A DNA stretch of 64,000 bases from Oligoflexales bacterium. GTDB lineage: Bacteria; Bdellovibrionota_B; Oligoflexia; Oligoflexales; Bog-1112. Made by a program: the position numbers and the translations under genes. Below, one piece after another: positions 14,593 to 58,590 of this stretch. The stretch covers positions 55,848-119,847 of the forward strand of contig JBGCEP010000018.1 of NCBI GenBank assembly GCA_045106415.1, written 5' to 3'. The notes under the pieces are model-generated. The model did not search any database. It saw only the letters and a program-made list of their open reading frames with translations, and was not told the DNA's origin. The first letter of the stretch is position 1; every line of letters starts with the position of its first letter.

Positions 14593-16149
14593 ATGCTTGA
14601 AACATATATTGGACTTGGCGTCATCTCAACAATTGCAGGTTTTATTCTTTTCCGAGGACTCCTTTTCGCATTACCAAGGCGTTTGAGCTCTGCTCATTAC
14701 GATCAACGAAAAGAAGTGATTAGCGAAGCAAAGCGCCAAGCGGAAAGCATTCTTAAAAACGCCCGCACACAAGAAGATGAAGCTATTGAAATCATGGAAG
14801 AAGAACTTAAAGATGAAATTGAACAGGAACAAGAAGCCCTTGAAGACCTGAAAACTGAGCTCGACGATCAAGATCGTTACCTCAAAAGCGTGCAAAAGCA
14901 AACAGAGAACGCTGAGAACAAAGTGACCAAGCGTGAGGGCGCGATTCAGATCATTCAACAAGAAACTGTAAAAAAACAAGAAGACCTCAAAACAGAGCAA
15001 GAAAACCTCATTACAACTCTCACTTCACAAACAGACCTTCAAATTGATCACACACGCCAGCAACTTCAGCAGCAAATTCTCGATGCTAGAACAGTTGAGT
15101 GCCAAAGGTTTCTCAAAGCCCTAGAAGACAATTTCTCATCTGAAGCATCACGAAATGCAAAAAGAATATTGGAAAAAGCAAACGCTCGATATGCCCCAAC
15201 TTTTTATTGGCCGAAACACTCTAATACCGTGGAAGCAGAACAAAAAATCATCGACACCCTTCAAAAGGAGGGTGACACAACTCTAGAGGAACTATCAGAA
15301 CTTTCAGGCTGTCAAATTCAACCAGCCACAGAAACTTCTATCCCCATGATCCGACTTTCTGGGGGCTTCGGCATCGACCGTGAGTCTGCACGACTTGCCC
15401 TCGAAACAGCACTTCAAGGGCAATCACCAAAGTGGAGACAACTCCCTGATCTGTATCAAAACCAAAGACAGCGCTTGATGGCAGAGGCTTCAGATCTAGG
15501 GGAAAAAGCCATTCATCAACTTCAGCTTCCCAATATCCACACAGAGCTCCAAAGGCTCGTCGGCGCTCTGAATTGGCGTACTTCATATCGCCAAAATCAA
15601 TGGCACCATACCGTTGAAGTGGCCACTCTCGCCGGACTTCTCGCAAGCGAAGTTGGCGTCGACCCCGAACACGCAAAGCGCTGCGGACTCTTGCACGACA
15701 TAGGAAAGGCCCTGGACTACAATATTGAAGGAAGTCACGCTGTTATTAGTGGTGATTACGCTGACCGTTACGGAGAATCTAGATTTATCTGTGATGCAGT
15801 CATGTCTCATCACGACGACCTGATTGTGGAGTCGCCTCTGGCATGGCTTTTACGTGCTGCCGACACCATGTCAGGCGCTCGACCAGGAGCTCGCGTAAAC
15901 TTAGAAGAAGGCTACCAGATTCGACTCGACGCAATCTCAGAAGCCGCTCATTCTTTTTCTGAGGTCTCAAACCTTGCCATTATGAATGGTGGTCGAGAGG
16001 TTCACGTCCAGGTACACAGCAATACAAAAGAGCGAGAGGTTCAATCTCTCCCAAGACGCCTGGCTGACAAGATCGAAGAAAATGTCGCCTACCCTGGTCA
16101 AATACGCGTTGTCGTAACACGAACATTTGAGTCGGTCGCTGTGGCTTAA
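14593..16149 (+). CDS. RNase Y paralog A (intact HD domain, degenerate KH)
   Basis: N-terminal TM plus coiled coil; WRTSYRQN..HH, GLLHDIGKA, SHHDD, AADTMSGARPGAR, GREVHV, YPGQIRVVVTR; no IGREG loop. Confidence 0.88.
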   Translation: MLETYIGLGVISTIAGFILFRGLLFALPRRLSSAHYDQRKEVISEAKRQAESILKNARTQEDEAIEIMEEELKDEIEQEQEALEDLKTELDDQDRYLKSVQKQTENAENKVTKREGAIQIIQQETVKKQEDLKTEQENLITTLTSQTDLQIDHTRQQLQQQILDARTVECQRFLKALEDNFSSEASRNAKRILEKANARYAPTFYWPKHSNTVEAEQKIIDTLQKEGDTTLEELSELSGCQIQPATETSIPMIRLSGGFGIDRESARLALETALQGQSPKWRQLPDLYQNQRQRLMAEASDLGEKAIHQLQLPNIHTELQRLVGALNWRTSYRQNQWHHTVEVATLAGLLASEVGVDPEHAKRCGLLHDIGKALDYNIEGSHAVISGDYADRYGESRFICDAVMSHHDDLIVESPLAWLLRAADTMSGARPGARVNLEEGYQIRLDAISEAAHSFSEVSNLAIMNGGREVHVQVHSNTKEREVQSLPRRLADKIEENVAYPGQIRVVVTRTFESVAVA

Positions 16150-16193
16150 AAAACGGTGATGATAGAATAGAAAAAACTCTATTGGGGGTCAGC

Positions 16194-16850
16194 ATGACTC
16201 ATATCATCTCAAAAACAGAAATTCAAAGCCTTGAGCTCGAGTGCCTTGGAAAGCCACACAATATCGAACTCAAACTTCAATTAGGATGCCTATTTCATAA
16301 AAATGGTCAATTTGCAGAGGCTGTACAAACCTATGAGGCCATCCTTCAGCAAGACCCTTCACACCCTGAAGCAAACCTCTCCATTATCGTCGTCCTCATT
16401 GATCTCAATGAATATGAAGATGCTCATAGACGCTATCTACACTTCAATCAACAACAAGCCCACACGTACACAGCTGCTCATCAAATAGCAAACCACCACA
16501 AAGCTCTCGCAAAACTTTATAAGCATGAAAAAAAAGTGAGCCTAGCAAACCAAGAGCTTCGAAAAGCTCTGCAAATTAACCCGAAAGATGTGCAGGCACG
16601 CGTTGAATTATCAAAAACATCTATGGATCAAAAAGACTACAGCACCGCACAGCAAGAGCTAGAGAAAGTTATCGCCATACAACCTGATCATGACGAAGCT
16701 CTCACTATGTTAGGGCTTGTTTATCATCAAAACGGGAGCCATCATAAAGCAGCAAGGCACTGGATGCAGGCAAGAAGGCTAAATCATCAGCAAAAAGCAG
16801 CACAAATTATGCTACAAGCCACACAAAACTCGACCACCTCACCAACTTAA
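16194..16850 (+). CDS. tetratricopeptide repeat protein
   Basis: Multiple TPR helix pairs (KALQINPKDVQAR, IQPDHDEALTMLGLVY). Confidence 0.85.
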   Translation: MTHIISKTEIQSLELECLGKPHNIELKLQLGCLFHKNGQFAEAVQTYEAILQQDPSHPEANLSIIVVLIDLNEYEDAHRRYLHFNQQQAHTYTAAHQIANHHKALAKLYKHEKKVSLANQELRKALQINPKDVQARVELSKTSMDQKDYSTAQQELEKVIAIQPDHDEALTMLGLVYHQNGSHHKAARHWMQARRLNHQQKAAQIMLQATQNSTTSPT

Positions 16851-17434
16851 AAACCACGCTCCAACACCTCTTCAATCACGTCATCTTCGACGCGACAAAC
16901 GCTCGACTCTCTTAAGTTTTTCATCTCAGCTAAAATAGAATAAAGACGATCACCCTCAACAACCCATTGATCTATTACAAAACGCTCTCCAACCCTCATA
17001 ACGATGTTCTTCGCTTGACTCACAGACTCCCCCTCAAGCCAAATCATACGAGTCAGAAGCCATGGAAAGCTTAAGGGTTGCACTCGACCATTTTCATCAT
17101 GCCACACAACGGTTTGACTCCCGTTCGATAATTTTTGTGAATACAACACTTGAGATCCTGGCCCCTGAAGCGCCAAACGCAGACCCTCACCGCCGCCAAT
17201 AGACACAGAGCTTTCTAGATAGCTCGGAGCACCAAGACGCTCAGCGCATGACGCGACAGGGCCATCAACACCACTAACTCTATGAAAAAGAGGGCACACT
17301 TGATACATCTCAACTAATTTTTGGCAAGCTGATTGAACCTGAGACAAAACCCTATCAGATCTATTGACATCGCTTTGAGCTAAAGCTGTGCTCGCTGAGT
17401 TCAAAACCCAAAAAGTGAGATACAAAAACTTCAT
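16847..17434 (-). CDS. exported hypothetical protein
   Basis: ATG 17434 with GGAGG RBS; signal peptide MKFLY...ALA-Q. Confidence 0.65.
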   Translation of the reverse strand: MKFLYLTFWVLNSASTALAQSDVNRSDRVLSQVQSACQKLVEMYQVCPLFHRVSGVDGPVASCAERLGAPSYLESSVSIGGGEGLRLALQGPGSQVLYSQKLSNGSQTVVWHDENGRVQPLSFPWLLTRMIWLEGESVSQAKNIVMRVGERFVIDQWVVEGDRLYSILAEMKNLRESSVCRVEDDVIEEVLERGF

Positions 17435-17453
17435 ATAAGACCTCCAGGTTAGC

Positions 17454-17481
17454 GTATCGGCATTCGTGAGGTGAAAACTAA
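17454..17481 (-). promoter_or_regulatory. sigma28-like promoter
   Basis: Minus strand TTAGTTTT-N12-GCCGATAC just upstream of the RBS of 16847..17434. Confidence 0.4.
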
Positions 17482-17592
17482 GCGAAAGATCATAAAGATC
17501 TGAACACACTAAAAACATTTAAAAAAACAAACATAACTTGGTTTTCTCTTAAAGATATGGTTGTTTGCCGTAAACAAAATACGGAGAACACC

Positions 17593-18444
17593 ATGTACGT
17601 TATGACTGTCGACTATCATGCCCCTGACGCCGCTGCGCAGGTGATTGAGTCTATGCAAAAAACAGGATTTGTCGTATTAGACAATCACGACATTCCCATA
17701 GATCTCATTGCGAAATCGTATGAAGAGTGGCAACAATTCTTCAAACAACCAGAAGATCAAAAGCTTAAATATAAATTCCAAAGAGATTTTAAAATTGTTC
17801 AAGACGGGTTCTTCCCATCTTCAACCTCTGAGACAGCAAAAGGAAGTCAGATAAAAGACTTAAAAGAGTTCTACCACTACTACCCATGCGGCCGCACCCC
17901 AGAAGGGATGTCAGACGCCACAGCAGAACTAAGAACTCAGCTCATTAATATCTCCCGAGATATCCTCACTTGGTTGGAAAAAGGCCTCCCAGAAAACACA
18001 AGGCAAGATTTGTCTATGCCTCTCGTCGATATGATCGACACAGAGCAACAGAGTCTGCTTCGCATTCTTCACTATCCACCTCTTTCTGAGCACCCTGAAG
18101 GCGCAATGAGAGCAGCCGCTCATGAAGACATCAACCTCATCACTCTCATACCAGCTGCAACAGCCTCAGGCCTCCAAGTACAAGATGTTCATGGACGTTG
18201 GCACAACATTGAAAGCAAACCAAATCAAATTATTATTAACTGTGGAGATATGCTTCAAGAGTCGAGTCAAAATCACTATAAAGCCACCACACACCGGGTT
18301 ATGAACCCACAAGACCAATCGGCACATACATCTCGGTATTCCATTCCATTTTTCTTACACCCTCGAAGTGACGTACGACTTTCTGAACGCTATACAGCAG
18401 GAAGTTACTTGACCGAGCGTTTAAAAGAATTAGGCTTGCTGTAA
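17593..18444 (+). CDS. 2-oxoglutarate/Fe(II) oxygenase, isopenicillin N synthase family
   Basis: LLRILHYPP, AHEDINLITL (HxD), NCGDMLQ, TTHRV, RYSIPFFLHP. Confidence 0.92.
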   Translation: MYVMTVDYHAPDAAAQVIESMQKTGFVVLDNHDIPIDLIAKSYEEWQQFFKQPEDQKLKYKFQRDFKIVQDGFFPSSTSETAKGSQIKDLKEFYHYYPCGRTPEGMSDATAELRTQLINISRDILTWLEKGLPENTRQDLSMPLVDMIDTEQQSLLRILHYPPLSEHPEGAMRAAAHEDINLITLIPAATASGLQVQDVHGRWHNIESKPNQIIINCGDMLQESSQNHYKATTHRVMNPQDQSAHTSRYSIPFFLHPRSDVRLSERYTAGSYLTERLKELGLL

Positions 18445-18499
18445 ACACATAAAAATTCATGGTATAAGTGATGGCTGTTTCATACTGGAGCCATCACTT

Positions 18500-19537
18500 A
18501 TGTCTCATAAAAAACTTATCTTAATTTACGGCGGTGCTTCCGTCGAACATGATATTTCATGCCTCAGTGCTCAATGGGTATATAACAACGTCCCTTCTGG
18601 GTATCAGTGCGAGCCTATTCTTGTCGATAGACAATCTCAATGGTGGCATACGCCTCACGTACTTTCATCTGACACTGAGCTTAAAAATGGCAAACCATTT
18701 CACAATTTTTTAGATTGTTTGGAAACGTTTGGAACAAATGAAGACACTGTCTATTTCATCGCTATACACGGCACAGGAGGTGAAGACGGCAACCTTCAAG
18801 GCGCTCTTACTTTTGCCAACGCTATTTTCACAGGTTGCAACACTGTCACTTCCTCTCTTTCTATGGATAAAGATTTTGCAAAAACTATAGTAAAAAACGC
18901 AGGCATTCTTGTTGCTGACGGGATTTGTGTTCACAAAACACTCAATTCTCTTCCAAAGCATATGACGTACCCGGTCTTCGTTAAGCCTGCAAATCTCGGC
19001 AGCTCTGTTGGGGTGTCTCGCGTCAACTCCGAGCAGGAGCTCACACATGCAGTCTCACACGCCCTCACTTTTGACAGCAAAGTCCTTATTGAGGCTGAGA
19101 TCGTAGGTCGAGAGGTGGAATGCGCTATTCTAGAAGATCAAGCTTTGGTTGTCAGCATACCAGGAGAAGTCATCACCGAGCACTCTTTTTACAGCTACGA
19201 AGCAAAATATCTCGATAAAAAAGCAACCCGAGTTCAAGTTCCAGCTGACCTCCCGCAAGACACCTTGAATCACCTACAAGAACAGGGCTTAAAAGCCGCA
19301 AAAGCTCTTGGAGTTGAAGGATTTGCGCGCATTGATTTTTTTGTCACTGAAAATGACTCAAGCGTAGTCTTCAATGAAATTAATACAATTCCAGGGCTTA
19401 CAGAATATTCCCTTTTTCCTAGATTATGGCAATATGAAGGAAAAAGCGGATCAACCGTCCTGGACATCATTTTTACAGCGGCTATCAAACGCTGGAAAAA
19501 AAATCAGATTCTTCAACGATCATTACACAAAGGATAA
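18500..19537 (+). CDS. ddl: D-alanine--D-alanine ligase
   Basis: GGASVEHDIS, HGTGGEDG, KPANLGSSVG, RIDFF, NEINTIPG. Confidence 0.96.
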   Translation: MSHKKLILIYGGASVEHDISCLSAQWVYNNVPSGYQCEPILVDRQSQWWHTPHVLSSDTELKNGKPFHNFLDCLETFGTNEDTVYFIAIHGTGGEDGNLQGALTFANAIFTGCNTVTSSLSMDKDFAKTIVKNAGILVADGICVHKTLNSLPKHMTYPVFVKPANLGSSVGVSRVNSEQELTHAVSHALTFDSKVLIEAEIVGREVECAILEDQALVVSIPGEVITEHSFYSYEAKYLDKKATRVQVPADLPQDTLNHLQEQGLKAAKALGVEGFARIDFFVTENDSSVVFNEINTIPGLTEYSLFPRLWQYEGKSGSTVLDIIFTAAIKRWKKNQILQRSLHKG

Positions 19538-19539
19538 CT

Positions 19540-20184
19540 ATGCACATGACATTCTCAGCTCAGCAAATCCGAAGATCCATCATCGCCCTTAGCCTTGCTG
19601 TTCTCAGCAGCTTAGTGGTTGATCAAGCAACAAAGATAAAAGCAGAAAACAACCTCATGGTTTGGAGCCATGACACAGACTTAAGACAGTACCAAGGAAA
19701 GCGCTATCCTTTAGGCTCACTGGGAAATCCTGAGTCGTCCTACATTGGGCTCAATATGAACTATGTACGTAATCAAGGGGCAGCTTGGGGCATGCTCTCC
19801 TCGGTTGAGGATTCGATTCGAATTCCTTTTTTTTACATCGTCACACTCATTGCTATTTTCTTTATTTCGAATTATCTACGTCAGACTCCTCCACATCATA
19901 GAATTGCCAGATACGGACTATCTATGATCCTGTCTGGCGCATTAGGAAATTGCCTTGATCGAATAAGACTCGGCTATGTCATTGATTTCATAGATGTGAG
20001 ATGGAGGTTTGATCTTTTTAGCTCATCCTGGGCGTATAACTTCCCGAATTTCAATATAGCGGACTCTTGCATCACTTTGGGGGTCGGCTGCATGTTAGTA
20101 GATATGCTACTGCTCGAACCAAAACGTGAATCGGAGCAAGGAGTCGTCAATGCCACAAAGGTTTCTTCGAAACTCAACAGTTAA
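19540..20184 (+). CDS. lspA: lipoprotein signal peptidase II
   Basis: DQATK, NQGAAWG, GALGNCLDRI..GYVIDF, FNIADSCIT. Confidence 0.95.
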   Translation: MHMTFSAQQIRRSIIALSLAVLSSLVVDQATKIKAENNLMVWSHDTDLRQYQGKRYPLGSLGNPESSYIGLNMNYVRNQGAAWGMLSSVEDSIRIPFFYIVTLIAIFFISNYLRQTPPHHRIARYGLSMILSGALGNCLDRIRLGYVIDFIDVRWRFDLFSSSWAYNFPNFNIADSCITLGVGCMLVDMLLLEPKRESEQGVVNATKVSSKLNS

Positions 20185-22609
20185 AGTTGCGGAACTTATA
20201 CAAAAAGCTATTACTGAGCTTGCTAATATGCGCCGCAGCGTTGTGACCCCTGAGCTTATCCTCCTCGCTCTTATTGAGCAGGAGGACTCAATACTTCTAA
20301 AAGTTATCGATGAAACCGGTCAAGATGTTGAAAAAACCCGTCGCATGATCGTTGATCGCATTCTAGAGCACAGCACCACTCTTCCTAAACTCAACTCAGA
20401 TGGCCAGTCTGCTTCCATTCGAGTTTCTGGTGATGTTCAAACCCTCTTTGAGGCCGCTGACGCTGAACGCAAAAAACTTGGTGACACCTACACTTCCACC
20501 TCTGCAGTCTTATTGGCTTTTTACGACCCCAGACTTGCATCTGTTAAAAAAATGCTTATAGATATCGGCCTCGACAGAGATCTTACTCAAAAATCCTTGG
20601 AAATTATCCGCGGTAATACACGCGTTACACAAAAAGACGGTGAGTCAAGAGCTTCTATCTTAGACAAATACACAACTGATTTAACAGCTCTTGCTCGTAG
20701 AGGAACTCTGGATCCCGTCATAGGTCGAGATGTAGAGATCAGACGAGTTATAGAAATTCTTTCTCGAAGAAAAAAGAATAACCCTATTCTTATCGGAGAG
20801 CCTGGCGTTGGAAAAACCGTCATAGCAGAAGGCCTAGCCATTCAAATCGTAAGCGCGGATGTTCCTGAGTATCTTTTAAAGACTCGTATTCTATCCCTTG
20901 AAATAGGCGCTTTGATTGCTGGGGCAAAGATTCAAGGAGAATTTGAAGAAAGATTAAAATCCATCCAAGATGAAGTTGTCGCCTCCGCGGGTGATATTAT
21001 CTTATTTATAGACGAAATTCACACTGTTGTTGGCGCAGGGCGTGGTGGTGGAGCCCTCGATGCTTCAAATATGCTAAAACCCGCACTCGCTCGAGGCTTA
21101 CTTCAGTGCATGGGCGCAACCACTCGCAGGGAATATAAACAATATATTGAAAGCGACAAAGCTCTGGAAAGACGTTTCCAACCAGTCATAGTTGGAGAGC
21201 CTTCACCAGAGCAGGCAATTCAGATTCTCCATGGTGTAAAAACAAAATACGAAAACCATCACCAAATTGAATATTCCGAAGAAGCTGTATCAGCCACTGT
21301 CAGACTTGCAGATCGTTATATTCAACAACGCTGCCTTCCTGACAAGGCTATCGACCTTCTCGACGAGGCTGGCGCAGCAAAACGCATTCAAGTGATTTAC
21401 ACCCCCCCTGAAATGCGTGATAAAGAAACAGAGCGAGCAGATATTGAGCATAAAAAAATCCAAGCGTTTAACGATCGAGATTTTGAAACCATGGCTCTTC
21501 ATCAAATGCAGCTTACAAAATTAGAAGAAGAGCTAGGCACAATCCGAAAAGGCATGGGAGGAGAAGATCATGAAAGGCTCGTTTCAGAAGAAGACATCGC
21601 TGCAATCGTAAGCCAACAAACTGGCATCCCACTCAAAAGAATGATTGCCGCAGAGTCAGAAAAACTTCTTAAAATGGAAGATGTTATCGGTCAGCGAGTC
21701 ATCGGTCAGCACGAAGCCGTACAAGCGGTGTCGCAAGCGATTCGTAGAAACCGCTCTGGAATTCGCAGGGGCAACTCACCCATTGCTTCCTTTTTATTCT
21801 TAGGGCCCACAGGCGTTGGGAAGACAGAGCTTGCTAAAGCTCTTGCGGAACAAATACTCGACGATGAAACACGTATTATTCGTCTCGACATGTCTGAATA
21901 CATGGAAAAACACAATGTCTCTCGACTTATTGGTTCTCCCCCTGGATATGTCGGATACGGAGAAGGGGGTCAACTCACAGAGCAAGTTAAACACAACCCT
22001 TACTCCGTCATCTTACTCGATGAGTTTGAAAAAGCTCATCCAGATGTCTACAATATCCTACTACCTGTATTAGATGAAGGGTTTCTCACTGACGCTGAAG
22101 GTCAAAAAATAAACTTCCAAAATTGCATTATTATCGGCACATCAAACCTCGGTTCCCATCTCATGTTTGATCGCAAAAAACCTGTTGGAATTGGCGCTCA
22201 AGACACAGATCATTCCCACACACAAAATGAACAAATCCTTGAGGAAGTTCAAAAATTTCTAAGGCCAGAATTTATTAATCGTTTAGATGATGTCATTATC
22301 TTTCACCCATTACTAGAAAACCAACTTGAGCAAATTTTAGAATATCAAATCAAAGATCTTGAAAAAAGACTCAAAGATCTGCATCTCACACTCCACATAA
22401 CAGAGAGCGCCAAAAAACTTATTCTTGAAGGGTCAAACACACAAAACTACGGCGCACGTCCACTTAAACGTCGATTAGAACAGCTCGTTGATAATAAGAT
22501 TGCTTCTTTATTAATTGAGTATCAAGGAAAAAAAGGGAAAAACGTAAGCGTAGACGCGAAAGAAGGAGACATTACTGTAAGTATGTTGGAAGGCCCTCCA
22601 TCTGAATAA
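20150..22609 (+). CDS. ClpC-like Hsp100 AAA+ ATPase
   Basis: Two Clp-N repeats, [14 protein letters not shown], short middle domain, [29 protein letters not shown] at the ClpP-loop position; ATG 20150 with AAGGAG RBS overlapping the lspA end. Confidence 0.9.
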
Positions 22610-22611
22610 TT

Positions 22612-23277
22612 TTAAGCACTCTGCTTTAACAGCTTTTCATCCATCACTTTGACAAGCATCTCTAAATCTTCAACTTGTCGTTTGAGATGATCTATTTCTT
22701 TATCTTTTAATTGAATTTCAATTTTTAATCTGTTTTCTTTTTCTTTAACATTTTTTTCATGTGTATCATGCAAAGACTGCAAACTCTTTTTATAATTTTC
22801 AAGTTCTTTTAAAGCTTCTTTCATACCTTCTAAAGTACCATCACAAAATTTTAAAAGATGATCACCAGAAAGATTCACTGAACGCGATTGATAGTCAGAA
22901 TGAAGTTTTTCAGGTAAGTGTGACGATGATCGGTCTGGACCTATATGATGCACTTGCACTCTTGGGGGTGTCGGCTCTTCAATTCTACTATATTCAGAAG
23001 AAGAGAGCCTTTTTTCATTGGTGTTTAGAGTATTTTGTGGCACACGCTGTGACGGATTTAGAGGGTGAGAAAGATGAGGTTCAGGCGTTCTCACGTCCAT
23101 ATCCCAGGATGTTTGATTTTGAGTTCTCCAAGGAGTTTCTGCATGAACAGGAATATAATACTTTCCTTCGCGTAGAACAGCCTGTAGCTTTCCGGTTTTA
23201 ATACGCCTACGCACAGTCATATCAGATACATTATATGTTCTTGCGTACTCCACAATGGATAACCATTGATCTGACAT
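22612..23277 (-). CDS. HTH (excisionase/MerR-like) protein with C-terminal coiled coil
   Basis: WLSIVEYARTYNVSDMTVRRRIKTGKL; heptad-rich C-terminus. Confidence 0.75.
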   Translation of the reverse strand: MSDQWLSIVEYARTYNVSDMTVRRRIKTGKLQAVLREGKYYIPVHAETPWRTQNQTSWDMDVRTPEPHLSHPLNPSQRVPQNTLNTNEKRLSSSEYSRIEEPTPPRVQVHHIGPDRSSSHLPEKLHSDYQSRSVNLSGDHLLKFCDGTLEGMKEALKELENYKKSLQSLHDTHEKNVKEKENRLKIEIQLKDKEIDHLKRQVEDLEMLVKVMDEKLLKQSA

Positions 23278-23381
23278 AAACCCTCCCTAACAAAATATTC
23301 GTTGAGTCTAGCACGCATATTTAAAAGATTGCCTCTCTGTCAAAACAGTGACACAACACCCATAATTTATAAAAAATAAAA

Positions 23382-23417: not shown

Positions 23418-23478
23418 ATGAATTGCATAGGTAGCTATCTCTGCCTATGGAAAATTTGCTCTACATGTCAAAATTTCA

Positions 23479-49237: not shown

Positions 49238-51139
49238 ATGGGCAAAATTATCGGTATCGATTTAGGAACAACAAACTCAGTTGTCACAGTCGTTGAAGGC
49301 GGACAACCAAAATTGATTCAAAACGCAGAAGGTCAAAGAACAACACCTAGCGTTGTCGCTTACACAAAAGACGGCGAAGTCTTAGTCGGTGCAGCAGCAC
49401 GACGCCAAGCTGTAACAAACCCAAAGAAAACTATTTTTTCTGCAAAGCGTTTTATTGGATCTAAATTCAAGGAATGTTCACACGAAGCAACACGCATGCC
49501 ATACACAGTCACTGAATCTAAAGACGGTGGGTGCTCTATTGAAGTTGACGGCAAAGCAACAAACCCTGCTGAGATTTCAGCAAAAGTTCTTATGAAGCTT
49601 AAAAAAGAAGCTGAAGACTTTCTTGGTTCTCCCGTCACAGAAGCTGTCATCACAGTTCCTGCATACTTCAATGATGCGCAAAGACAAGCCACAAAAGATG
49701 CAGGCAAAATTGCTGGCCTTGATGTGAAAAGAATTGTTGCTGAGCCAACAGCTGCAGCACTAGCATATGGTTTAGATAAAAAAACAAATGAAAAAATTGC
49801 TGTTTATGACTTCGGGGGCGGCACTTTCGACGTTTCTATTCTAGAGGTTGGAGAAAGCGTTGTTGAAGTACTAGCAACAAATGGTGACACTCACCTTGGT
49901 GGTGACAATATTGATGAAATTCTTATCCAGAACCTTCTCGACCAATTCAAAACCGAGACAGGCATCGACATCTCAGCAGATCCAATGGCTGTACAACGCC
50001 TTAAAGAAGCTGCTGAAAAAGCAAAAATCGAACTTTCTTCAGCACCATCAACAGATATCAACCTCCCGTTTTTAACTGCTGATCAAACAGGTCCAAAGCA
50101 CTTGAATACAAGTATTTCACGTGCTGAATTTGAACGCATGATTCACGACGTTGTTGAAAAAACACTCGCACCATGTCGCCAAGTTCTTTCCGACGCTGGC
50201 CTTCAAGCATCTGAGATTCAGGAAGTCCTTCTCGTTGGTGGATCGACTCGAATTCCACTTGTTCAACAAAAAGTAAAAGAAATGTTCAACCGCGAACCAA
50301 ACAAAACCGTCAACCCTGACGAAGTTGTTGCAATTGGCGCTGGTGTACAAGCAGGTATTCTTGGTGGAGATGTTGAAGGCGTTCTTCTTCTCGATGTGAC
50401 CCCACTATCACTTGGCATTGAAACTCAAGGCGGCATCATGAGTCACCTTATTGAGCGCAACACAACAATCCCAACTCGTAAGAGCCAAGTCTTTTCAACT
50501 GCTGCTGACAACCAAACCTCTGTGGAAGTTCGTGTTCTACAAGGCGAGCGTGAACTCGCAAGCCATAACAAAGAGCTTGGGCGATTCAGCCTCATCGATA
50601 TTCCTCCAGCACCACGCGGTGTTCCTCAAATCGAAGTCACTTTTGATATCGACGCGGACGGAATTGTCGCTGTTTCAGGTAAAGATCTCGGAACAGGAAA
50701 AGAGCAAAAAATTACAATTCAGTCTGATAGCAAACTTACTGAAGAAGAAATCGAAAAAATGGTCAAAGAAGGAGAGGCACACGCCGCTTCTGACAAAGAA
50801 GCTCGTGAAAAAGTGGAAGCACGCAACCAACTTGACTCCATCATTTACCAAGCAGAAAAACTACTCAAAGAGCACAACGACAACGTACCAGCAGAACTTA
50901 AAGCTGACATCGAAGCCGGCATGAAAGAAGCTCGTAGTAAACTCGACTGTGACAACACTGAAACGCTTCAAGCAGCACGTACTGATTTTGAGGCAAAGCT
51001 TCACAAACTTTCTGAGTTAATCTACCAACAGACTGCAAACCAACAGTCTCAAGGGCAACCAGAAGGAAATACTGAAGGACAAACTCAGGGTCAAGATGAC
51101 GTTGTAGATGCTGAGTTCGAAGAAGGGGATAAGAAGTAA
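49238..51139 (+). CDS. dnaK: chaperone DnaK
   Basis: [52 protein letters not shown]. Confidence 0.98.
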
Positions 51140-51154
51140 GATTTTATCTTCATC

Positions 51155-52651
51155 TTAAGCCGCACTGCCGCCGCCTCGACGCTTATGCATTGAGGCGGCG
51201 CAGCTTTTTAGAAACTTTTGTGTCTCTTGTGTCTTCACACCATGCACCCTAGAGAGATGGTACATATGCCAAGCTTTCGCATACTGCCGAGTTCTTCTAT
51301 AAACTTCAGCCAACATATAAAAAGCCTCTCCACACTTCGGATCCATAAAAATAACTCGGTGCAAAGCCTTCAGGCTGGGCTGCACTTGTTTTAATTGCAG
51401 TAAGTTTTTTGCTAAATTCAAAAAAGCATCCCGAGAAGGTTCAACTTTAGTTAATTCCATCCACGATTCTGCAGCTGCTGTAAAATCTTTAGCTTCTTGC
51501 TCTAAAGTAGCTTTCATACGCAAACCTCCAGGATCTTGCGGCGACCGTATTAACAGCTGTGTTAATACTTTTAAAGCATCAGTTGGACGTTCTGTAGCAC
51601 GATAAAAACGTGCGAGGCATTCATACGCATCTAAACGCTCAGGGTGATCGCCCTTCTCATTCATAAGAACAATTTCTGCTTTCCTTGGTTCTTGCGCTGC
51701 TAAACAATGCTTTACAACAGCCTCTAATGCTCGCGTCTCATTTGGTGCCTGACGCCTAAGCCTCTTAAAGTAATAAATAGCTTTTTCGAGATCACCTTTT
51801 TTAGCGTAGGCGTGCCCAGCTCCATATAAAGCTTTTTTAAACTTAGGATCTTCTTTCAAGGAGGCTCTATAGTGTTCAATAGCACCAAGAACATCTTTAT
51901 TTTGTAGCAAAATTTTAGCTAAATAAGCTTGACGAATTGGCTGTTTTGGATTCAAATTAAGTTCTTTTTTAAGATTTTCAATGGCCTTAGATGTCATTTG
52001 CTGATGAGAATAAATATCAGCAAGAGCCGCATAATTTTTATAATAACTCGAGGACATCTGAATATTATCCTCAAGAAGCTCTATCGAACGCGCAAAATCT
52101 CCACGATGTCGAACAACAATCGCTAATGCATGCCGAGCTCGCTGACTCGTTGGATCCAACTGCATTGCCTGCAGGTATAGAGTTTCAGCTGTCTCATAAT
52201 CTTGACTTTGAAAACATGTATCTGCTGAGTGCAGCAACTTCACAAGTTGACTAGGATCCTGAAAAGATTGAATCATTTGCTCAATACGTTCTTCAACAAC
52301 CTCAGCCTGAAAAGGCTTAATCAAATAATCATGAGCTCCCAAGTCGACAGCTTTTATGATGTCATCTTTTTCTGCCTCACCGGTGACAACTAAAATTGGA
52401 ATATCGTGACCAATATCTCGATTACGAATCGTACGAATGACATGAAAACCGTCAACCTTACGCATATAAAGATCACACACTACAAGATGGATCCTGTTTT
52501 TCTCGAGGACTTCAAGTGCGTCAGATCCATCAAAGGCAACATGGACCTGTGCAAAACCTAATCGAGTCATAATTTTTTTCAGAGCTTGCCGCATAGGATC
52601 GTGGTCATCCACAATCAACACATTCAAACCCTGATACAAATCTGATGACAA
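51155..52651 (-). CDS. response regulator with C-terminal TPR array
   Basis: LIVDDH, VCDLYM, VVTGE, LIKPF, followed by multiple TPRs. Confidence 0.88.
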   Translation of the reverse strand: MSSDLYQGLNVLIVDDHDPMRQALKKIMTRLGFAQVHVAFDGSDALEVLEKNRIHLVVCDLYMRKVDGFHVIRTIRNRDIGHDIPILVVTGEAEKDDIIKAVDLGAHDYLIKPFQAEVVEERIEQMIQSFQDPSQLVKLLHSADTCFQSQDYETAETLYLQAMQLDPTSQRARHALAIVVRHRGDFARSIELLEDNIQMSSSYYKNYAALADIYSHQQMTSKAIENLKKELNLNPKQPIRQAYLAKILLQNKDVLGAIEHYRASLKEDPKFKKALYGAGHAYAKKGDLEKAIYYFKRLRRQAPNETRALEAVVKHCLAAQEPRKAEIVLMNEKGDHPERLDAYECLARFYRATERPTDALKVLTQLLIRSPQDPGGLRMKATLEQEAKDFTAAAESWMELTKVEPSRDAFLNLAKNLLQLKQVQPSLKALHRVIFMDPKCGEAFYMLAEVYRRTRQYAKAWHMYHLSRVHGVKTQETQKFLKSCAASMHKRRGGGSAA

Positions 52652-52670
52652 AACATCCCTCCTTTAACCT

Positions 52671-52698
52671 TAATCGGCTCATAAGAGGGCTGTCTTAA
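52671..52698 (-). promoter_or_regulatory. sigma28-like promoter
   Basis: Minus strand (T)TAAG-N15-GCCGATTA immediately upstream of the RBS of the receiver-TPR gene. Confidence 0.5.
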
Positions 52699-52772
52699 TA
52701 AAAACAAAGATCATGTTTATGAAAACATTCAACTTTATTTAAATCATATAAATGACTTAAGGGTCATAGTAT

Positions 52773-53921
52773 CTATGCATTCACAGCATAAAGAGGCCGC
52801 TCCAACCGTTTAAAGATTGTTTCTGTTCCTTTAAAAACGTCTTCAACATGAACTTGGTCATAACACTTCACCTTTTGATCACAGGATTTTTTCCAACATG
52901 GCGAACAAGACACACGAGCTTGCATTTTGACTCCGTAATCGAAAAGATCAATTTCAGCAGAACACGTCACACCAAACCACGATAAAACAGGCTTCCCAAG
53001 TGCAATTGCAATATGAAGACCTAGGCTATCACCGCTTAAAACAAAGTCACTGCAAGCCATCCACAAAATACCAGATCGTAATCCTTCAGTCGTAGGAGTA
53101 TTGACTACCAAAGAATCCTCTTCGAAACACGCCTTCATAGCTTTTTGCCGCTCTGTATCCTCACGCCCTCCAAGCAGAGCGACCACAGCATCAGGGTAGG
53201 ATTTCCTCCACATACGAATCACTTCACACGCTCTTTCAATTGTGAATTTTTTATAAGGAAAAAGCGTAGAGCATCCTGTGTTAAACCCAATCACACGTGT
53301 TGCTTTTGTTCCCTCAAGAAGCTGTTTTTTTCTTTTCACAACTTCTTCACGCTCATGTTTTTCTAAACGAAGTACATAACCGTCATGTTTCCATGGCAAG
53401 CCCATCGCTTCTGTCAGCAGTTGAGTCTCTGGTTTTTGATTGGTATGAAATTTTAAATGATCGTCAAGCCCTAAACGATATAGTTCATCAGCATCTGGCG
53501 TCATTGTCCGAATAGCACCTTCCGGCGTAAGGCCAAATCCTTTTTTCTCTTTTGCAGAAATCCTTTCTGCAAGCGCTCCAGCTGCAATAGATTTATCCAC
53601 AGCGTAGAGAACATCAAATTGCAAATGATCCCAAACTGCGGACATATCCGCTTGAACTGTCAAAAGCCGATGGATCATCGGATTTCCAGCTAAAAGAGAC
53701 TTCACATTCGGCATGGTAATCCATGTAATGTGTGCACCCGGATACTCACGCAAGATAGGCCCTAAAAGACACGTCGATCGCAGGACAGCCCCCATAGCTT
53801 CTAAGCTGACAACAGCGATTCTTCGAGTTGGCTTTCGATATGTTTGACACCCCTGACACTGCCCACCAAAACGACAAGGTTTATAACCTGAAAACCAAAA
53901 ACAATCTCTTTGGTAGCCCAC
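52773..53921 (-). CDS. glycosyltransferase family 9 (LPS heptosyltransferase-like)
   Basis: MGAVLRST, VIGFNTG, SGDSLGLHIAIALGKP..WFG.T, CSPC; Cys-rich N-terminus. Confidence 0.88.
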   Translation of the reverse strand: MGYQRDCFWFSGYKPCRFGGQCQGCQTYRKPTRRIAVVSLEAMGAVLRSTCLLGPILREYPGAHITWITMPNVKSLLAGNPMIHRLLTVQADMSAVWDHLQFDVLYAVDKSIAAGALAERISAKEKKGFGLTPEGAIRTMTPDADELYRLGLDDHLKFHTNQKPETQLLTEAMGLPWKHDGYVLRLEKHEREEVVKRKKQLLEGTKATRVIGFNTGCSTLFPYKKFTIERACEVIRMWRKSYPDAVVALLGGREDTERQKAMKACFEEDSLVVNTPTTEGLRSGILWMACSDFVLSGDSLGLHIAIALGKPVLSWFGVTCSAEIDLFDYGVKMQARVSCSPCWKKSCDQKVKCYDQVHVEDVFKGTETIFKRLERPLYAVNA

Positions 53922-53949
53922 ACCAACTCCTCTGCGTTATAATAAAAGA

Positions 53950-54810
53950 ATGAAAAAAAAATATCTCACGTTGCGCATCATAAGACCCTCAGGTAGGGAA
54001 GGACAAGAGATTCTCTTGACCGAACTCATCGAATCCTTACGGAACAAGGGTCACGACATCCGTGTTGATGATCACCCGTTCGACGAAACAACACCTTGGG
54101 TTTCAGGAAACATTACAAATCGCCGTCAAGAACTCATTGCTGCAGTAGAAGAAAGCGATACAGACGCTATTCTTTGTGCAAAAGGTGGCTATGGATGTTC
54201 TGACCTGCTGCCCACACTCCCTTGGGACGATTGGGTTCATCTCCCACCAAAAATCATCATTGGATTTTCAGATATTACAGCCCTTCTTGCGGCATTTCAT
54301 ACAAAACTTGGTTGGGAAAGTCTACACGGACCTATGCCAGCCACAAAATTATGGACGCAAGGCGCATGGGAATGCCTACAAAATATTCTCACGCAAGACG
54401 ACTCAGAACACACATTACCACTGGCTTCCTATAACCAAACACCACTTCAATCACTTAACGGCAAACTCATTGGTGGTTGTTTATCTGTTCTATCCTGCTT
54501 AATAGGAACACCATGGATATCTTCTCTCAATCGTAGTTTTCTTTTTTTAGAAGATATCAATGAGAATCCAGGACAGATCATGAGAAATTGGAATCAAATC
54601 ACACAAAGTGAAATCTTCACAGGGGTGCAAGGAATCATTTTAGGTGATTTCATAGGAACAGAGATAGACTTCAAGCCTTATTTCACACAGAATTTAGACA
54701 TTCCAGTATGGACGACGGAATTCATTGGTCACCATAAAAAGAATCTCCATATTGGATTTGGGACCAAAGCTACAATTGCACACAACACACTACGTTGGAG
54801 GATCACATGA
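53950..54810 (+). CDS. ldcA: LD-carboxypeptidase (peptidase S66)
   Basis: KGGYG, GFSDITA (Ser), LIGGCL, FLEDINE (Glu), IGH (His). Confidence 0.88.
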   Translation: MKKKYLTLRIIRPSGREGQEILLTELIESLRNKGHDIRVDDHPFDETTPWVSGNITNRRQELIAAVEESDTDAILCAKGGYGCSDLLPTLPWDDWVHLPPKIIIGFSDITALLAAFHTKLGWESLHGPMPATKLWTQGAWECLQNILTQDDSEHTLPLASYNQTPLQSLNGKLIGGCLSVLSCLIGTPWISSLNRSFLFLEDINENPGQIMRNWNQITQSEIFTGVQGIILGDFIGTEIDFKPYFTQNLDIPVWTTEFIGHHKKNLHIGFGTKATIAHNTLRWRIT

Positions 54811-56207
54811 TTTATTTTTTAGGTGTTGCAGGAACTGGAATGAGTGCTGCTGCTGGACTTTTAAAGTCAATTGGAGAAAATGTTGTTGGAAGTGATCAAA
54901 ATATTTTCTCTCCAGCAAAAGAGGTTTTAGAAAAAGCAAACGTCATCGTTCGGACTCCGTATGATCCTAAAAATATTCCTTCCAATGTTTCATGCGCCGT
55001 TATTGGGAACACCATCTCAAAAGGGCACCCTGAGCTCGAAGCTATACTTGCCAAAAATATTCCAATCACAAGTTTTCCAGCTATCATTTCAGAAAAAATT
55101 CTTAAAAATAAAATTCCTATCGTCGTAGCTGGAACACATGGCAAAACAACAACAACCTCAATGATTGCTTGGATCTTGCACTCTTTAGGGCACGAGCCTG
55201 GATATCTTATTGGCGGTCAACCCCTCAATTTTGAAAATAGCTACAGCGTTGGTAAAGGATCTTTATTTGTTATTGAAGGCGATGAATACGACACTGCCTA
55301 CTTCGACAAGGAATCAAAATTTCTCCACTATCGACCAAGTCACGTGGTTTTAAACCGCGTAGAATATGATCACGCAGATATTTTTGAAGATATCGATGCC
55401 GTTCACGTCATGTTTAAAAAACTTCTCCATAAAATTCCAAACAATCGCTTAATTGTGAATACAGACCATCCTGAAATGGCTGAATTCATCAACAACCGTG
55501 ACGGCTATATTCAAACTTCGATTATAGGACAAGGCGACATATCAATGACAGAGGTTCAGGTCAAAAATGGCATTTGGACAAGTCTAGTCAATACAAAAAT
55601 GTGGGGATCATTCAAAATTCAAACAAAATGTGGGGGTCAACACAACCAAATGAACTTCCTACAGGCACTTGGAGCCATCCAAAGCCTTGTGGATGCCGGC
55701 CATATTCCCAACCCAACAGCAAAAGATCTAGCAAGTGCTATTCAAAGCTTTCAGGGCGTTCAAAGACGACTTTTTCCTCTTGCTAACCAAAATAACATTC
55801 AAGTCCTTGAAGACTTCGCACATCACCCAACAGCCACTCGATACCTTCTGGAAACATTACGAACAAATAACCCTGATCGCCGGCTTATCGTTGCCTTTGA
55901 ACCTAAAAATGCCACGTCGCGACGCAATACCTTTGCTGATCAATATGCGGATGCCTTCCAAAATGCAGATCAAGTTCTCATAGGGGAATGCCCGGAAGAT
56001 AAACGTATCCCCGAAAAACAAAGAATGAATACAAAAACCTTAGCAGAAAACATTGGGAAACACGCACACGCATACCAAGACAACAATCAACTCTATCAAT
56101 GGCTAGTTGAACACTCTACCCCTGGAGACACTGTCGTTTTTCTATCATGCGGAAGCTTTTCAGGGATTCAACATCAGTTCGCACGACACATCGATTCGCA
56201 CCCATAG
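54807..56207 (+). CDS. mpl: UDP-MurNAc:tripeptide ligase (Mpl/MurC family)
   Basis: GVAGTGM, AGTHGKTTT, EGDEYDTAYFDKESKF, DHADIF, DFAHHPT, LSCGSF. Confidence 0.88.
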   Translation: MIYFLGVAGTGMSAAAGLLKSIGENVVGSDQNIFSPAKEVLEKANVIVRTPYDPKNIPSNVSCAVIGNTISKGHPELEAILAKNIPITSFPAIISEKILKNKIPIVVAGTHGKTTTTSMIAWILHSLGHEPGYLIGGQPLNFENSYSVGKGSLFVIEGDEYDTAYFDKESKFLHYRPSHVVLNRVEYDHADIFEDIDAVHVMFKKLLHKIPNNRLIVNTDHPEMAEFINNRDGYIQTSIIGQGDISMTEVQVKNGIWTSLVNTKMWGSFKIQTKCGGQHNQMNFLQALGAIQSLVDAGHIPNPTAKDLASAIQSFQGVQRRLFPLANQNNIQVLEDFAHHPTATRYLLETLRTNNPDRRLIVAFEPKNATSRRNTFADQYADAFQNADQVLIGECPEDKRIPEKQRMNTKTLAENIGKHAHAYQDNNQLYQWLVEHSTPGDTVVFLSCGSFSGIQHQFARHIDSHP

Positions 56208-56307
56208 CCAAAGGGTGCGTGACAAACTCAGTAAACTCTTTGTCTTGCTTTCCATCATATGAGACAATAATATCTAAGCCATGGACAGTTGTTTAAAGGG
56301 ACTCATC

Positions 56308-56847
56308 ATGCAACTTCGAGTAGTAAAAATCGCGACCACAGTAGTAGCTTTAACACTTGGTGTTTGGGGCTGTACAGACGAACAAGAAGAGATGGATTCT
56401 AGCCTCGAAGGCTCTGAAACCACAGATCCTGCTGCCGTTGATGACCTCGGCACACCAGGAGGGGCGGCTCTTGATCTTTCTCAAGCAGCAGATCAAGGTC
56501 AAATCAATCAATACCAACCTAGTCCAATTTATTTTGCTTTCGACAGGTCTTTAATCACCGACAGTGCACAAGAAGAACTAGGGCGACTTGTTTCTTTCTT
56601 GCAAGAAAACCCGAGTGCAGCTGTTCAAATTGATGGCCATTGCGATTCACGAGGATCACGTAACTACAACGTGGCTCTTGGCTTAAGCCGAGCGAACTCT
56701 GTCAAAAGGTTCATCACGCAACGTGGTATCAATGACGCTCGCATCACAATTAACAGCTACGGTGAAGAGCGCCCTGCTGTTGTAGGTGATGGAGAGGCAA
56801 TTTGGTCACAAAACCGGCGCGCCGTATTTGTGATTTCAAACTACTAA
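56308..56847 (+). CDS. pal: peptidoglycan-associated lipoprotein (OmpA C-terminal domain)
   Basis: Lipobox VWGC; IYFAFDRS, GHCDSRGSRNYN.ALG..RA, SYGEERP, NRRA. Confidence 0.85.
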   Translation: MQLRVVKIATTVVALTLGVWGCTDEQEEMDSSLEGSETTDPAAVDDLGTPGGAALDLSQAADQGQINQYQPSPIYFAFDRSLITDSAQEELGRLVSFLQENPSAAVQIDGHCDSRGSRNYNVALGLSRANSVKRFITQRGINDARITINSYGEERPAVVGDGEAIWSQNRRAVFVISNY

Positions 56848-56863
56848 ATTTAAGTAGGCGATC

Positions 56864-56906
56864 AAAAGGCCCCAAGCTTGTTATCTTCAAGCTTGGGGCC
56901 TTTTTT
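56864..56906. terminator. rho-independent terminator after pal
   Basis: 17-bp stem AAAAGGCCCCAAGCTTG/CAAGCTTGGGGCCTTTT plus T-tract. Confidence 0.85.
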
Positions 56907-57021
56907 AGGTTTCAGTTCGAGGATTCGCATATATGTTGGAAAAACATTGAAATTGCGGTAGCCTGTAGCATTGCGCTTATTATATGCGCCAAAGCCTCTA
57001 TCAAGATGAGCGGAGAAAAAC

Positions 57022-58590
57022 GTGAATACTCTCATCACTGTGCTGGTCGTTGGCATCGGGATTCTTATTGGGTTCCTTATCCTCGGCATTCTATTCCATA
57101 AAAAAAGCCTTGCTGCTGCGTTTGAAATTTCTCAAGCTGAAGCACGCAAAGTCCTTGAAGACGCCCGTAAAGAAGCGGATAGCGTCGTCCGTTCGGCCAT
57201 GAAAGACGCAAAGGAAGAAGCGAAAAAAAGACGCCGAGCCTTTGAAGAAGAAGCTAAAAAGCGTAGAACTGAAGTCGCAAAGCTTGAGAAAAAACTCAAA
57301 AGTCGAGAACAAAGTCTTGAGAATAAAATCTCAAGTCTCGCCGAACGAGAGCAAAAAGCTGATGATTTTTATCAACGCCTGCAAAAACAAGAACAAAAGC
57401 ATCTCAGCTTAAGAGCTGAATACGAGCTTGCTATTGAAAACACACAAAAAGAACTTAAAAAGGTCGCAAAGTTGAGCACCGAAGAAGCTCGCGCACAGCT
57501 TTTACGATCCCTGGAAGACGAAGTTCGTAAAGAGTCCCGCGATGAGCTTGCCAGAATTGAAGAAGAAACAAGAAAAGAAGCTCAAGTCAAAGCAACAGAA
57601 ATTCTATGCCTTTCCGTACAAAAACTCGCCAGTGAACATGTGAATGATTCTTTAATTAGTGTCGTTTCTCTTCCGAGTGAAGACATGAAGGGTCGCATTA
57701 TTGGCCGTGAAGGCCGTAATATCCGAGCGATTGAACAAGCCACTGGGGTTGATCTTATTGTCGACGATACTCCTGAGGCTGTGATTATATCTTCTTTCAA
57801 CCCTATCCGTCGTGAAATTGCTAAAATTACTCTAGAAAACTTAATTTCTGACGGCCGTATCCACCCAGCAAGAATTACTGAAACAGTAAAAAGGGTTGAA
57901 ACAGAGTTTCAAACAACGATTAGAGAAGCTGGTGAGCAAGCTGCATTTGATGTTGGTATTACAGATTTACACCCAACTCTCATTGAAGGTCTAGGAAAAT
58001 TAAAGTTCCGCTCTTCGGGCAACCAATCTCTTTTAGCTCACTCTGTAGAAACAGCAAGAATCTGCGGCATCATGGCTGATGAGATGAAACTCAATTCTCG
58101 ACGAGCAAAAAGAGCTGGTTTACTCCACGATATTGGCAAATCAGTCGATCACGACACTGAAGGGCATCATGCTGAGGTCGGTGCAAACCTATGCAAAAAG
58201 GTCAATGAGCACGAAGAAGTTGTCACCGCAGTTCGTTTGCATCAAAATGATGACCTCACAAATGCCTCACCCCTTACTGTCATCATCAATGCAGCTAATC
58301 ACCTTTCTCGCTCAAGACCTGGGGCTCGAAAAGAAGCTATGGAAACTTATATCCGTCGGCTCGAAGATATGGAAACTGTGGTTAATGACTTTGAAAAAGT
58401 CGACAGCGCCTTCGTCATGCAGGCTGGTCGTGAAGTCAGAGCTCTTGTCACTTCAGAGCATCTCGAAGACACAGAAGTTCGCACCCTCTCGCATGAGGTA
58501 GCAGCTAAAATTCGTCAAGAACTAACCTTTCCCGGACAAGTGCGAGTGTGTATTGTCCGAGAGAGCACATATGTTGATTTTGCAAGATAA
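57022..58590 (+). CDS. rny: RNase Y paralog B (intact KH, substituted HD ligands)
   Basis: TM plus coiled coil; LPSEDMKGRIIGREGRNIRAIE, DDTPE, DGRIHPARI, GLLHDIGKS, QAGREVR; but LHQND and AANHLS replace HH and AAD. Confidence 0.9.
   Translation: MNTLITVLVVGIGILIGFLILGILFHKKSLAAAFEISQAEARKVLEDARKEADSVVRSAMKDAKEEAKKRRRAFEEEAKKRRTEVAKLEKKLKSREQSLENKISSLAEREQKADDFYQRLQKQEQKHLSLRAEYELAIENTQKELKKVAKLSTEEARAQLLRSLEDEVRKESRDELARIEEETRKEAQVKATEILCLSVQKLASEHVNDSLISVVSLPSEDMKGRIIGREGRNIRAIEQATGVDLIVDDTPEAVIISSFNPIRREIAKITLENLISDGRIHPARITETVKRVETEFQTTIREAGEQAAFDVGITDLHPTLIEGLGKLKFRSSGNQSLLAHSVETARICGIMADEMKLNSRRAKRAGLLHDIGKSVDHDTEGHHAEVGANLCKKVNEHEEVVTAVRLHQNDDLTNASPLTVIINAANHLSRSRPGARKEAMETYIRRLEDMETVVNDFEKVDSAFVMQAGREVRALVTSEHLEDTEVRTLSHEVAAKIRQELTFPGQVRVCIVRESTYVDFAR

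Follow-up and report, generated by a model that had tools for sequence, protein, structure and literature searches.

Why a bacterium should keep two RNase Y-like proteins, each with the motifs that the other has lost, is the question raised by a stretch of 64,000 nucleotides (the window) from the Oligoflexales bacterium assembly GCA_045106415.1 (contig JBGCEP010000018.1, positions 55,848 to 119,847, forward strand). In many bacteria RNase Y is the chief endoribonuclease by which RNA decay is initiated. The window holds two genes of this type, here called copies A and B, which a preliminary description made from the letters alone had proposed to encode a split-function enzyme. Comparison of their sequences with those of relatives strongly supports reciprocal specialisation of the two copies. 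With moderate confidence, we take them to be a reciprocally specialised RNase Y pair that works together at the membrane, probably as a hetero-oligomer. The two genes are:

14593..16149, + strand: copy A, RNase Y-like protein, 518 aa; full HD catalytic set, KH fold without GxxG; predicted catalytic subunit; 290.3 bits against TIGR03319
57022..58590, + strand: copy B, pipeline name ribonuclease Y, 522 aa, GTG start; KH intact, HD site degraded; 598.4 bits against TIGR03319

Both open reading frames (ORFs) proved to be real, each encoding a protein of ~520 aa with an anchor, a helical region, an HD domain and an RNase Y C-terminus, and their motifs lay where they had been reported. They are 27% identical over a full-length alignment (E 2e-46) and were the only RNase Y matches in the assembly (2.95 Mb, 93.8% complete), in which both lie uninterrupted on the same 120-kb contig. 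TIGR03319, the NCBIfam equivalog hidden Markov model (HMM) for RNase Y, has 514 model positions, about 500 of which were aligned by each copy. Against its curated cut-off of 454.35 bits, copy A (290.3 bits) fell below and copy B (598.4 bits) above, yet B lacks a defining metal ligand. In Pfam searches, A matched RNase_Y_N (41.6 bits; cut-off 32) and HD (55.7 bits) and had no KH match at E<=0.1, and B matched RNase_Y_N (123.1 bits), KH_1 (32.5 bits) and HD (57.7 bits). Each protein has a single N-terminal hydrophobic segment followed by a charged, proline-free helical stretch. The features of copy A are:

14617..14673, + strand: N-terminal hydrophobic anchor, residues 9-27; Kyte-Doolittle 19-aa maximum 1.98; helix in the model
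14674..15189, + strand: long helical, coiled-coil-like region, residues 28-199; weak RNase_Y_N match (41.6 bits); model helices 2-147 and 151-199
15226..15414, + strand: degenerate KH domain, residues 212-274; beta-alpha-alpha-beta-beta-alpha topology
15265..15279, + strand: loop 225-229 in place of GxxG; acidic or neutral across the clade
15577..15597, + strand: RTSYRQN motif (canonical RTSYGQN); invariant in 28/30 same-order A-type sequences
15604..15870, + strand: HD domain; H339, H368-D369, K372, H382, H406-H407 and D424 all kept
15895..16146, + strand: RNase Y C-terminal region, ARPGAR onward; ends in the clade-typical ...VA

The features of copy B are:

57040..57096, + strand: N-terminal hydrophobic anchor, residues 7-25; Kyte-Doolittle 19-aa maximum 3.06
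57667..57834, + strand: KH domain, Pfam KH_1 residues 216-271; GxxG is G228-R-E-G231 at 57703..57714
57850..57867, + strand: DGRIHP; invariant in 35/35 B-type sequences
58006..58026, + strand: FRSSGNQ replacing RTSYGQN; B-clade counts 31/35 for Y->G, 34/35 for N->S/T
58033..58308, + strand: HD domain; H340, H369-D370, K373, H383 and H407 kept; H408 changed to Q, and the final Asp is N426

Reading of the sequences, codon by codon, bore out the reciprocal motif loss reported earlier: A carries the full HD set and neither GxxG nor DGRIHP; B carries the KH loop and DGRIHP together with AAN and FRSSGNQ. In A, H368-D369 is encoded at 15694..15699, H406-H407 at 15808..15813 and D424 at 15862..15864, and KIIDTLQKEGDTTLEE stands where the GxxG stretch would be expected. 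The loop at the GxxG position itself reads KEGDT in the present genome, and its residues are variable and mostly acidic or neutral across the clade. In B, MKGRIIGREGRNI begins at 57685, the codons cat caa (58240..58245) encode H407 and Q408, and aat (58297..58299) encodes N426.

Conservation of these motifs was read in 30 same-order orthologues of each type, in ten more sequences (five A-type, five B-type) from the phylum's two other orders, and in an outgroup of 80 RNase Y sequences from many other phyla. The outgroup was picked by KH peptide patterns, which makes its KH conservation a matter of construction; its HD sites played no part in the choice. The last Asp of the HD site was D in 79/80 outgroup and 35/35 A-type sequences but in 0/35 of the B-type (33 N, 1 K, 1 R), and four further B-type sequences (G077, G069, G049, G023) read N, bringing the B-type count to 0/39. 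The whole set of H, HD, K, H, HH and D was complete in 35/35 A-type sequences. The Tyr of RTSY, Y or F in 79/80 of the outgroup, was G in 31/35 and S in 4/35 B-type sequences, and the Asn of QN, likewise N in 79/80, was S or T in 34/35. At GxxG and DGRIHP, the motif was kept in 35/35 B-type and 0/35 A-type sequences; in the outgroup, chosen by KH pattern, GxxG was kept in all but one of the 80. Because the D->N, Y->G and N->S/T changes are fixed throughout the B clade, at positions conserved in 79/80 sequences from other phyla, the B-clade deviations are, on this comparison, beyond chance.

The substitutions that had been listed for B were thus in part a property of the clade: the D->N change was, with the last Asp non-D in 39/39 B-type sequences, and HH->HQ (H408->Q, 58243..58245) was not, being private to the present genome (1/35 B-type). 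The two copies were also constrained in opposite regions. Among 25 shared genomes, mean pairwise identity over the KH region was 0.35 for A-A and 0.88 for B-B comparisons, and over the HD domain it was 0.81 for A-A and 0.64 for B-B. In a sister-order family (f17), B had lost nearly all HD ligands: HD had become HS or HN, H had become Y, HH had become HL or HR and D had become K or R, with a perfect KH. One outgroup sequence, L131 (an Acidobacteriota record), with a very long branch (3.35), differs from the others at many conserved columns; the ORF choice may have taken a wrong or damaged frame there, and this record is probably behind several of the single outliers among the 80.

The two types were also retained together, as the preliminary description had expected of relatives with the same reciprocal defects. 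Among 41 same-order genomes from 16 families, full-length A-type genes were present in 39, B-type in 38 and both in 37. The four exceptions were incomplete genomes or genes cut by contig ends: neither copy was matched in G020 (67% complete), B was absent from G003 (88% complete), G022 held only a 42-residue piece of B at a contig end, and G023 held A only as pieces at contig ends. Across the phylum (104 genomes at least 85% complete, 18 families, one class), the A-type was found in 100. Two of the four misses (G077, G023) were A fragments cut by contig ends, and no A-type was found in the other two (G049, G069).

Pairing of this kind recurs outside the phylum. When A was searched against 1.84 billion cluster representatives, 2997 matches were returned at E<=1e-3, and among the best 150 of these were, outside the A clade, many RNase Y-like proteins of ~520 residues that lack GxxG and DGRIHP and keep the HD set. 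All 10 KH-degenerate representatives tested scored under the TIGR03319 cut-off (317.9-434.4 bits). By record title, one KH-degenerate group was placed in Bdellovibrionales, Bdellovibrio and Pseudobdellovibrionaceae, and another in Kofleriaceae, Haliangiales and Polyangia of the Myxococcota. The Myxococcota-type second copies were recovered with a single protein as query; an alignment query returned canonical RNase Y only. The pairing was located at L235-L240 and L334-L423 in Bdellovibrionia and at L503-L544 in Polyangia.

In Bdellovibrionia, 81 genomes of at least 90% completeness were sampled: 54 carried two copies, 25 the KH-bearing copy only and 2 the second type only (G158, G128). In the two-copy genomes, KH-bearing copies scored 518-642 bits and second copies 348-452 bits. 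Eight HD-site residues were scored (H, H, D, K, H, H, H, D). All eight were present in the KH-bearing copy of 23/25 one-copy genomes, the exceptions being a partial sequence (G121) and a genome that nests within the two-copy clade (G179). In two-copy genomes the KH-bearing copy was intact in 0/54; it carried 1-7 changes (mean 4.1), and the last Asp was never D. Conversely, among 15 sampled second copies (from 14 of the 54 two-copy genomes and from G158), the HD site was intact in 15/15, and 13/15 had no G-x-x-G spacing in the KH loop; two kept it (GADG, GKDG). As a separate observation, the sole RNase Y-type gene found in G128 (C42:9277-10792) is KH-degenerate and is split by an in-frame TGA, for which sequencing error, a pseudogene or recoding are all possible.

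In Polyangia, 61 genomes of at least 90% completeness were searched with a match threshold of E<=1e-50; 30 carried two copies, 14 the KH-bearing copy only, one the second type only and one a fragment, and 15 were unmatched. KH-bearing copies were read in 30 of these genomes (17 two-copy and 13 one-copy; 13 two-copy genomes and G204 were left out). The last Asp was N in 17/17 two-copy genomes, and in one-copy genomes it was D in 11/13 and N in 2/13 (G210, G258). In four more two-copy genomes the KH-bearing copy again read N, and the second-type copies read D in 5/5. Among the genomes examined, an A-type or second copy thus never stood beside a KH-bearing copy with an intact Asp (0/54 in Bdellovibrionia, 0/21 in Polyangia, 0/39 in the phylum of the window). 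With 15/61 genomes unmatched at this threshold, RNase Y is patchy in the class. Two KH-bearing cluster representatives with Asn at the last HD ligand (P0245, P0260) may mark more split-enzyme lineages.

Three FastTree runs (LG+gamma; 190-195 sequences in the latest) were used to place the copies. The KH-bearing copies grouped by taxon. Those of Bdellovibrionia formed a group (support 0.978) in which one-copy genomes made up a basal grade with the two-copy clade nested inside it (0.956). Those of Polyangia formed another (0.95) with an N-bearing clade (1.0) that included G210 and G258. The Oligoflexia B clade (0.993) lay among canonical sequences of other phyla. Each of the D->N clades, three in all, adjoined D-bearing kin and stood apart from the other two in the tree, which gives three separate losses of the Asp, each alongside a KH-degenerate paralog.

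The history of the A-type is less simple. The three KH-degenerate clades were each monophyletic and on long branches, and their mutual placement shifted between trees. A was never the sister of B in any tree, and stood on a long branch with the KH-degenerate Bdellovibrionia and Polyangia copies. Duplication followed by complementary degeneration had been proposed earlier. The reciprocal defects are indeed ancient and lineage-wide, but the trees do not show A to have arisen from B by recent duplication in this lineage. For the origin of the A-type, a firm choice between one ancient paralog family, horizontal transfer and three duplications with long-branch attraction was rejected, as the three runs disagree on the relations of the KH-degenerate clades to one another and to canonical RNase Y.

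To what extent A remains a KH protein was examined by structure prediction. In the AlphaFold2 (AF2) model of A (predicted local distance difference test (pLDDT) 86.1, predicted template modelling score (pTM) 0.54), assignment of secondary structure with the program DSSP gave a strand at 212-214, helices at 217-224 and 230-238, strands at 241-245 and 252-256 and a helix at 260-274, an order of elements over residues 212-274 that is that of a type I KH domain. A model of residues 199-279 alone (pLDDT 80.6) had an identical element order. In Foldseek searches of the PDB, the best matches of this domain-only model were KH domains (Nova-2 KH3, BICC1, FUBP1, KSRP, PCBP2 and the PNPase KH), with template modelling scores (TM-scores) of 0.5-0.77 normalised to the target and a best E of 5e-3 (Nova-2 KH3), none reaching <=1e-3. 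The full-length model of A gave one match at E<=1e-3, a poor fit (TM 0.17), and weaker matches to HD-containing chains and unrelated helical proteins. A sequence search of the PDB returned KH-domain proteins only (E>=3e-4) and no solved RNase Y catalytic domain. These models indicate that A keeps the KH fold and has lost the RNA-binding loop.

Diverged KH domains without GxxG are known as KH-like protein-interaction modules, and residues 212-274 of A resemble them in type I KH topology and in the missing GxxG loop; the likeness is one of fold, and the KH-like domain of A may bind protein, RNA or nothing. Two further features of this region are specific to the A clade. Residues 257-260 (GGFG, 15361..15372) belong to an almost invariant GG[FY]G..RE loop that joins the last strand to the last helix, where canonical RNase Y has SGFDP.RRE, and an invariant WPK stands just ahead of the first KH-like strand.

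How might the two copies act together? In the arrangement that we propose, A would contribute the metal-dependent HD active site, having kept the KH fold and lost its GxxG loop and, presumably with the loop, canonical RNA binding. B would contribute a canonical KH module for RNA binding and the conserved scaffold of RNase Y, with an HD site that lacks the terminal Asp ligand and, in the present genome, one His of the HH pair; by its sequence, B is predicted to be an RNA-binding, non-catalytic or attenuated subunit. Each would be held in the membrane by an N-terminal helix leading into the long helical region, B binding and presenting single-stranded RNA and A cleaving it. In f17 and in most two-copy Bdellovibrionia, KH-bearing copies persist with 4-7 of the 8 site residues replaced. 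Natural variants that have lost 5 or more HD-site ligands show that, where an A-type is present, the KH-bearing copy can do without catalysis.

Because the anchor, the long helices and the C-terminal region are present in both A and B, a mixed oligomer would be the simplest form of such a partnership. In Bacillus subtilis, according to PMC9775385, RNase Y is a dimer or tetramer; in the model given there, the N-terminal coiled coil accounts for ~72% of the buried surface, the last beta-strand joins the interface, and a pore beside the KH domains is proposed as the RNA entry. A complex of A(26-518) with B(28-522) was predicted with an interaction prediction score from aligned errors (ipSAE) of 0.48 (runs 0.48, 0.48 and 0.51; partner pLDDT 74; runs agreeing in at least 92% of contacts), against 0.00 for the best of three controls. 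In calibration, the mark set for this score was reached by 116/157 solved complexes and 2/215 mismatched pairs; passes at or below 0.60 comprised 18 of the 157 solved complexes and both passing mismatches, and most such passes are wrong unless there was prior reason to expect the pairing. The score also does not tell a heteromer from homomers, giving no ranking against A:A or B:B. The heterodimer of the preliminary description thus gained a score above its controls, but in a weak band, and the complex stays a prediction.

Several further points weigh against joint action of the pair, beginning with that weak support for a physical A:B complex. The genes lie 42 kb apart and share no operon, and no hint of RNA metabolism was found among the neighbours of either. 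Genomes with a single type exist. Only the KH-degenerate type was present in G158 and G128 (Bdellovibrionia) and G206 (Polyangia), all at least 90% complete, and only this type was seen in G200 (completeness not stated); only the N-bearing KH type was present in G179, G210, G258, G049 and G069. If these absences are real, the partners are not strictly obligate. Because the genomes are related, counting them inflates the number of events, which is about three. Finally, of the same-order B sequences, 30/30 retain H, HD, K, H and, in the HH pair, the first H, and 29/30 the second. With seven of the eight scored residues conserved, the pocket is not decaying freely, and it may be altered and not dead. 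Oligoflexales and Polyangia show Asp to Asn as the invariable change, with the other ligands conserved, which points to selection for a particular state, for instance a holding or regulatory site, and not to free decay; Asn can still ligate a metal, and B may have weak or altered activity.

The alternative that fares best is that the two proteins are independent: A would be the real RNase Y, a homo-oligomer that binds RNA elsewhere, and B a separate membrane protein that binds RNA or serves as a scaffold, perhaps for other decay factors, with no mixed complex between them. This would suit unlinked genes 42 kb apart, coiled-coil regions only 17% identical between A and B within one genome, the existence of single-type genomes and the weakness of the A:B prediction. 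It is nonetheless unlikely, because the perfect association of an A-type with loss of the last Asp in its partner needs a functional link and arose three times. Canonical RNase Y, moreover, forms dimers or tetramers, and neither A nor B has lost the anchor, the long helices or the C-terminal strand that serves in dimerisation (PMC9775385).

Less probable still is that both copies are active nucleases, with Asn still binding metal, B tuned in metal preference, activity or regulation, and A acting on other substrates. The restriction of change in Oligoflexales and Polyangia to the Asp, always to Asn and with the other ligands conserved, does look like selection. However, in f17 and most two-copy Bdellovibrionia the corresponding copy has lost 4-7 of the 8 residues, the HD dyad among them, and is still retained with its KH intact; B has also lost the Y and N of RTSYGQN, conserved in 79/80 sequences elsewhere, and in the present genome a His of the HH pair. 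An artefact (pseudogene, contaminant contig, mis-assembly or sequencing errors) is highly improbable: H408Q, private to the assembly, could be such an error, but both genes lie uninterrupted on one 120-kb contig with full-length orthologues in 37/41 related genomes, and the last Asp is replaced, by N or through further degradation, in 39/39 B-type sequences.

Returning to the reciprocally specialised pair, a bolder version of it may be put forward, which we hold tentatively and at less than even confidence. RNase Y would have been turned at least three times, in Oligoflexia, in the Bdellovibrio-containing clade of Bdellovibrionia and in the Kofleriaceae- and Haliangiales-containing clade of Polyangia, into an obligate two-gene enzyme, one subunit being catalytic with its KH silenced and the other RNA-binding with its HD silenced. 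Each conversion would have started with Asp to Asn, and the Asn pocket, not dead but maintained by selection, would hold substrate or act in regulation and so gate the cleavage carried out by the partner.

The genomic setting of the two genes is otherwise unremarkable. A is flanked by genes for ClpB-like, FHA, TPR, 2-oxoglutarate (2OG) oxygenase, Ddl and LspA proteins and by an ORF of unassigned type; B is flanked by genes for an LD-carboxypeptidase, a Mur ligase and an OmpA-like protein and by unassigned ORFs. The ORF directly 3' of B (58616..60193, + strand, 525 aa) and that just upstream of A (13657..14433, - strand, 258 aa) each encode a hydrophobic N-terminus and had no Pfam match at E<=1e-5. 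In many same-order genomes (for example G014:C2, G005:C4, G016:C1, G026:C3, G057:C2) the two genes share a contig and are separated by 26-80 kb, as they are by 42 kb in the window; in other families the distance exceeds 1 Mb, indicating loose synteny and no operon. No RNA run was listed for the A gene; three DNA runs containing it were, all from one study.

Compared with canonical RNase Y of B. subtilis, both copies share the anchor, the long dimerising helices, the KH, the linker helices, the HD domain and the C-terminal region; there, however, GxxG and the full HD set stand on one polypeptide, whereas in the present pair they stand on separate paralogs. HDOD and its kin are HD folds without metal ligands that have non-hydrolytic roles, and both copies gave a sub-domain match to Pfam HDOD (E about 1e-6). 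Unlike HDOD, B is by sequence a bona fide RNase Y orthologue whose ligand loss appears recent and graded, from 1 to 7 residues by lineage.

The nearest parallel is RNase J1/J2 of Firmicutes, in which, according to PMC3937233, J1 gives the active site, whereas the metal motif of J2 is deviant, its active site is dispensable and its role in the complex is chiefly structural. Both systems are ribonuclease paralogs retained together, one with a degenerate site, its dispensability here being indicated by natural variation. They differ in that RNase J has a metallo-beta-lactamase/beta-CASP fold and J2 keeps its RNA-binding module, which makes the loss one-sided where that in A and B is reciprocal; the J1/J2 complex, moreover, was shown experimentally, and that of A with B we infer.

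In full-text literature covering few of the subscription journals, no description of RNase Y paralogs, a pseudo-RNase Y or a Bdellovibrio RNase Y was found, and the accessible parts of PMC4419217 and PMC3997798 held nothing bearing on a split between RNase Y paralogs. Current annotation runs against the division of labour proposed here. NCBI names the A-type 'HDIG domain-containing protein [Oligoflexales bacterium]' and the B-type 'ribonuclease Y', and JGI names both 'ribonuclease Y'; one of the 10 KH-degenerate representatives is called 'ribonuclease Y' (JGI) and nine are unnamed. The suspicion that the gene a pipeline would call rny may be the inactive copy was borne out in that B, named ribonuclease Y by NCBI, is the copy with the damaged catalytic site. 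In these lineages, Bdellovibrio included, the gene annotated as 'ribonuclease Y' is probably not the nuclease, the real one being filed as an HDIG protein.

Pairs of enzyme and pseudoenzyme paralogs are already known as a kind, and A and B would be such a pair in a central RNA-decay enzyme. A natural split of RNA-binding and catalytic functions would offer a ready-made dissection of RNase Y, and such a pair would reveal how the KH domain is paired to the active site, whether two of each are needed per dimer and what the last Asp does. The three recurrences, with an identical first substitution, would make it a clean case of repeated subfunctionalisation to an enzyme/pseudoenzyme pair.

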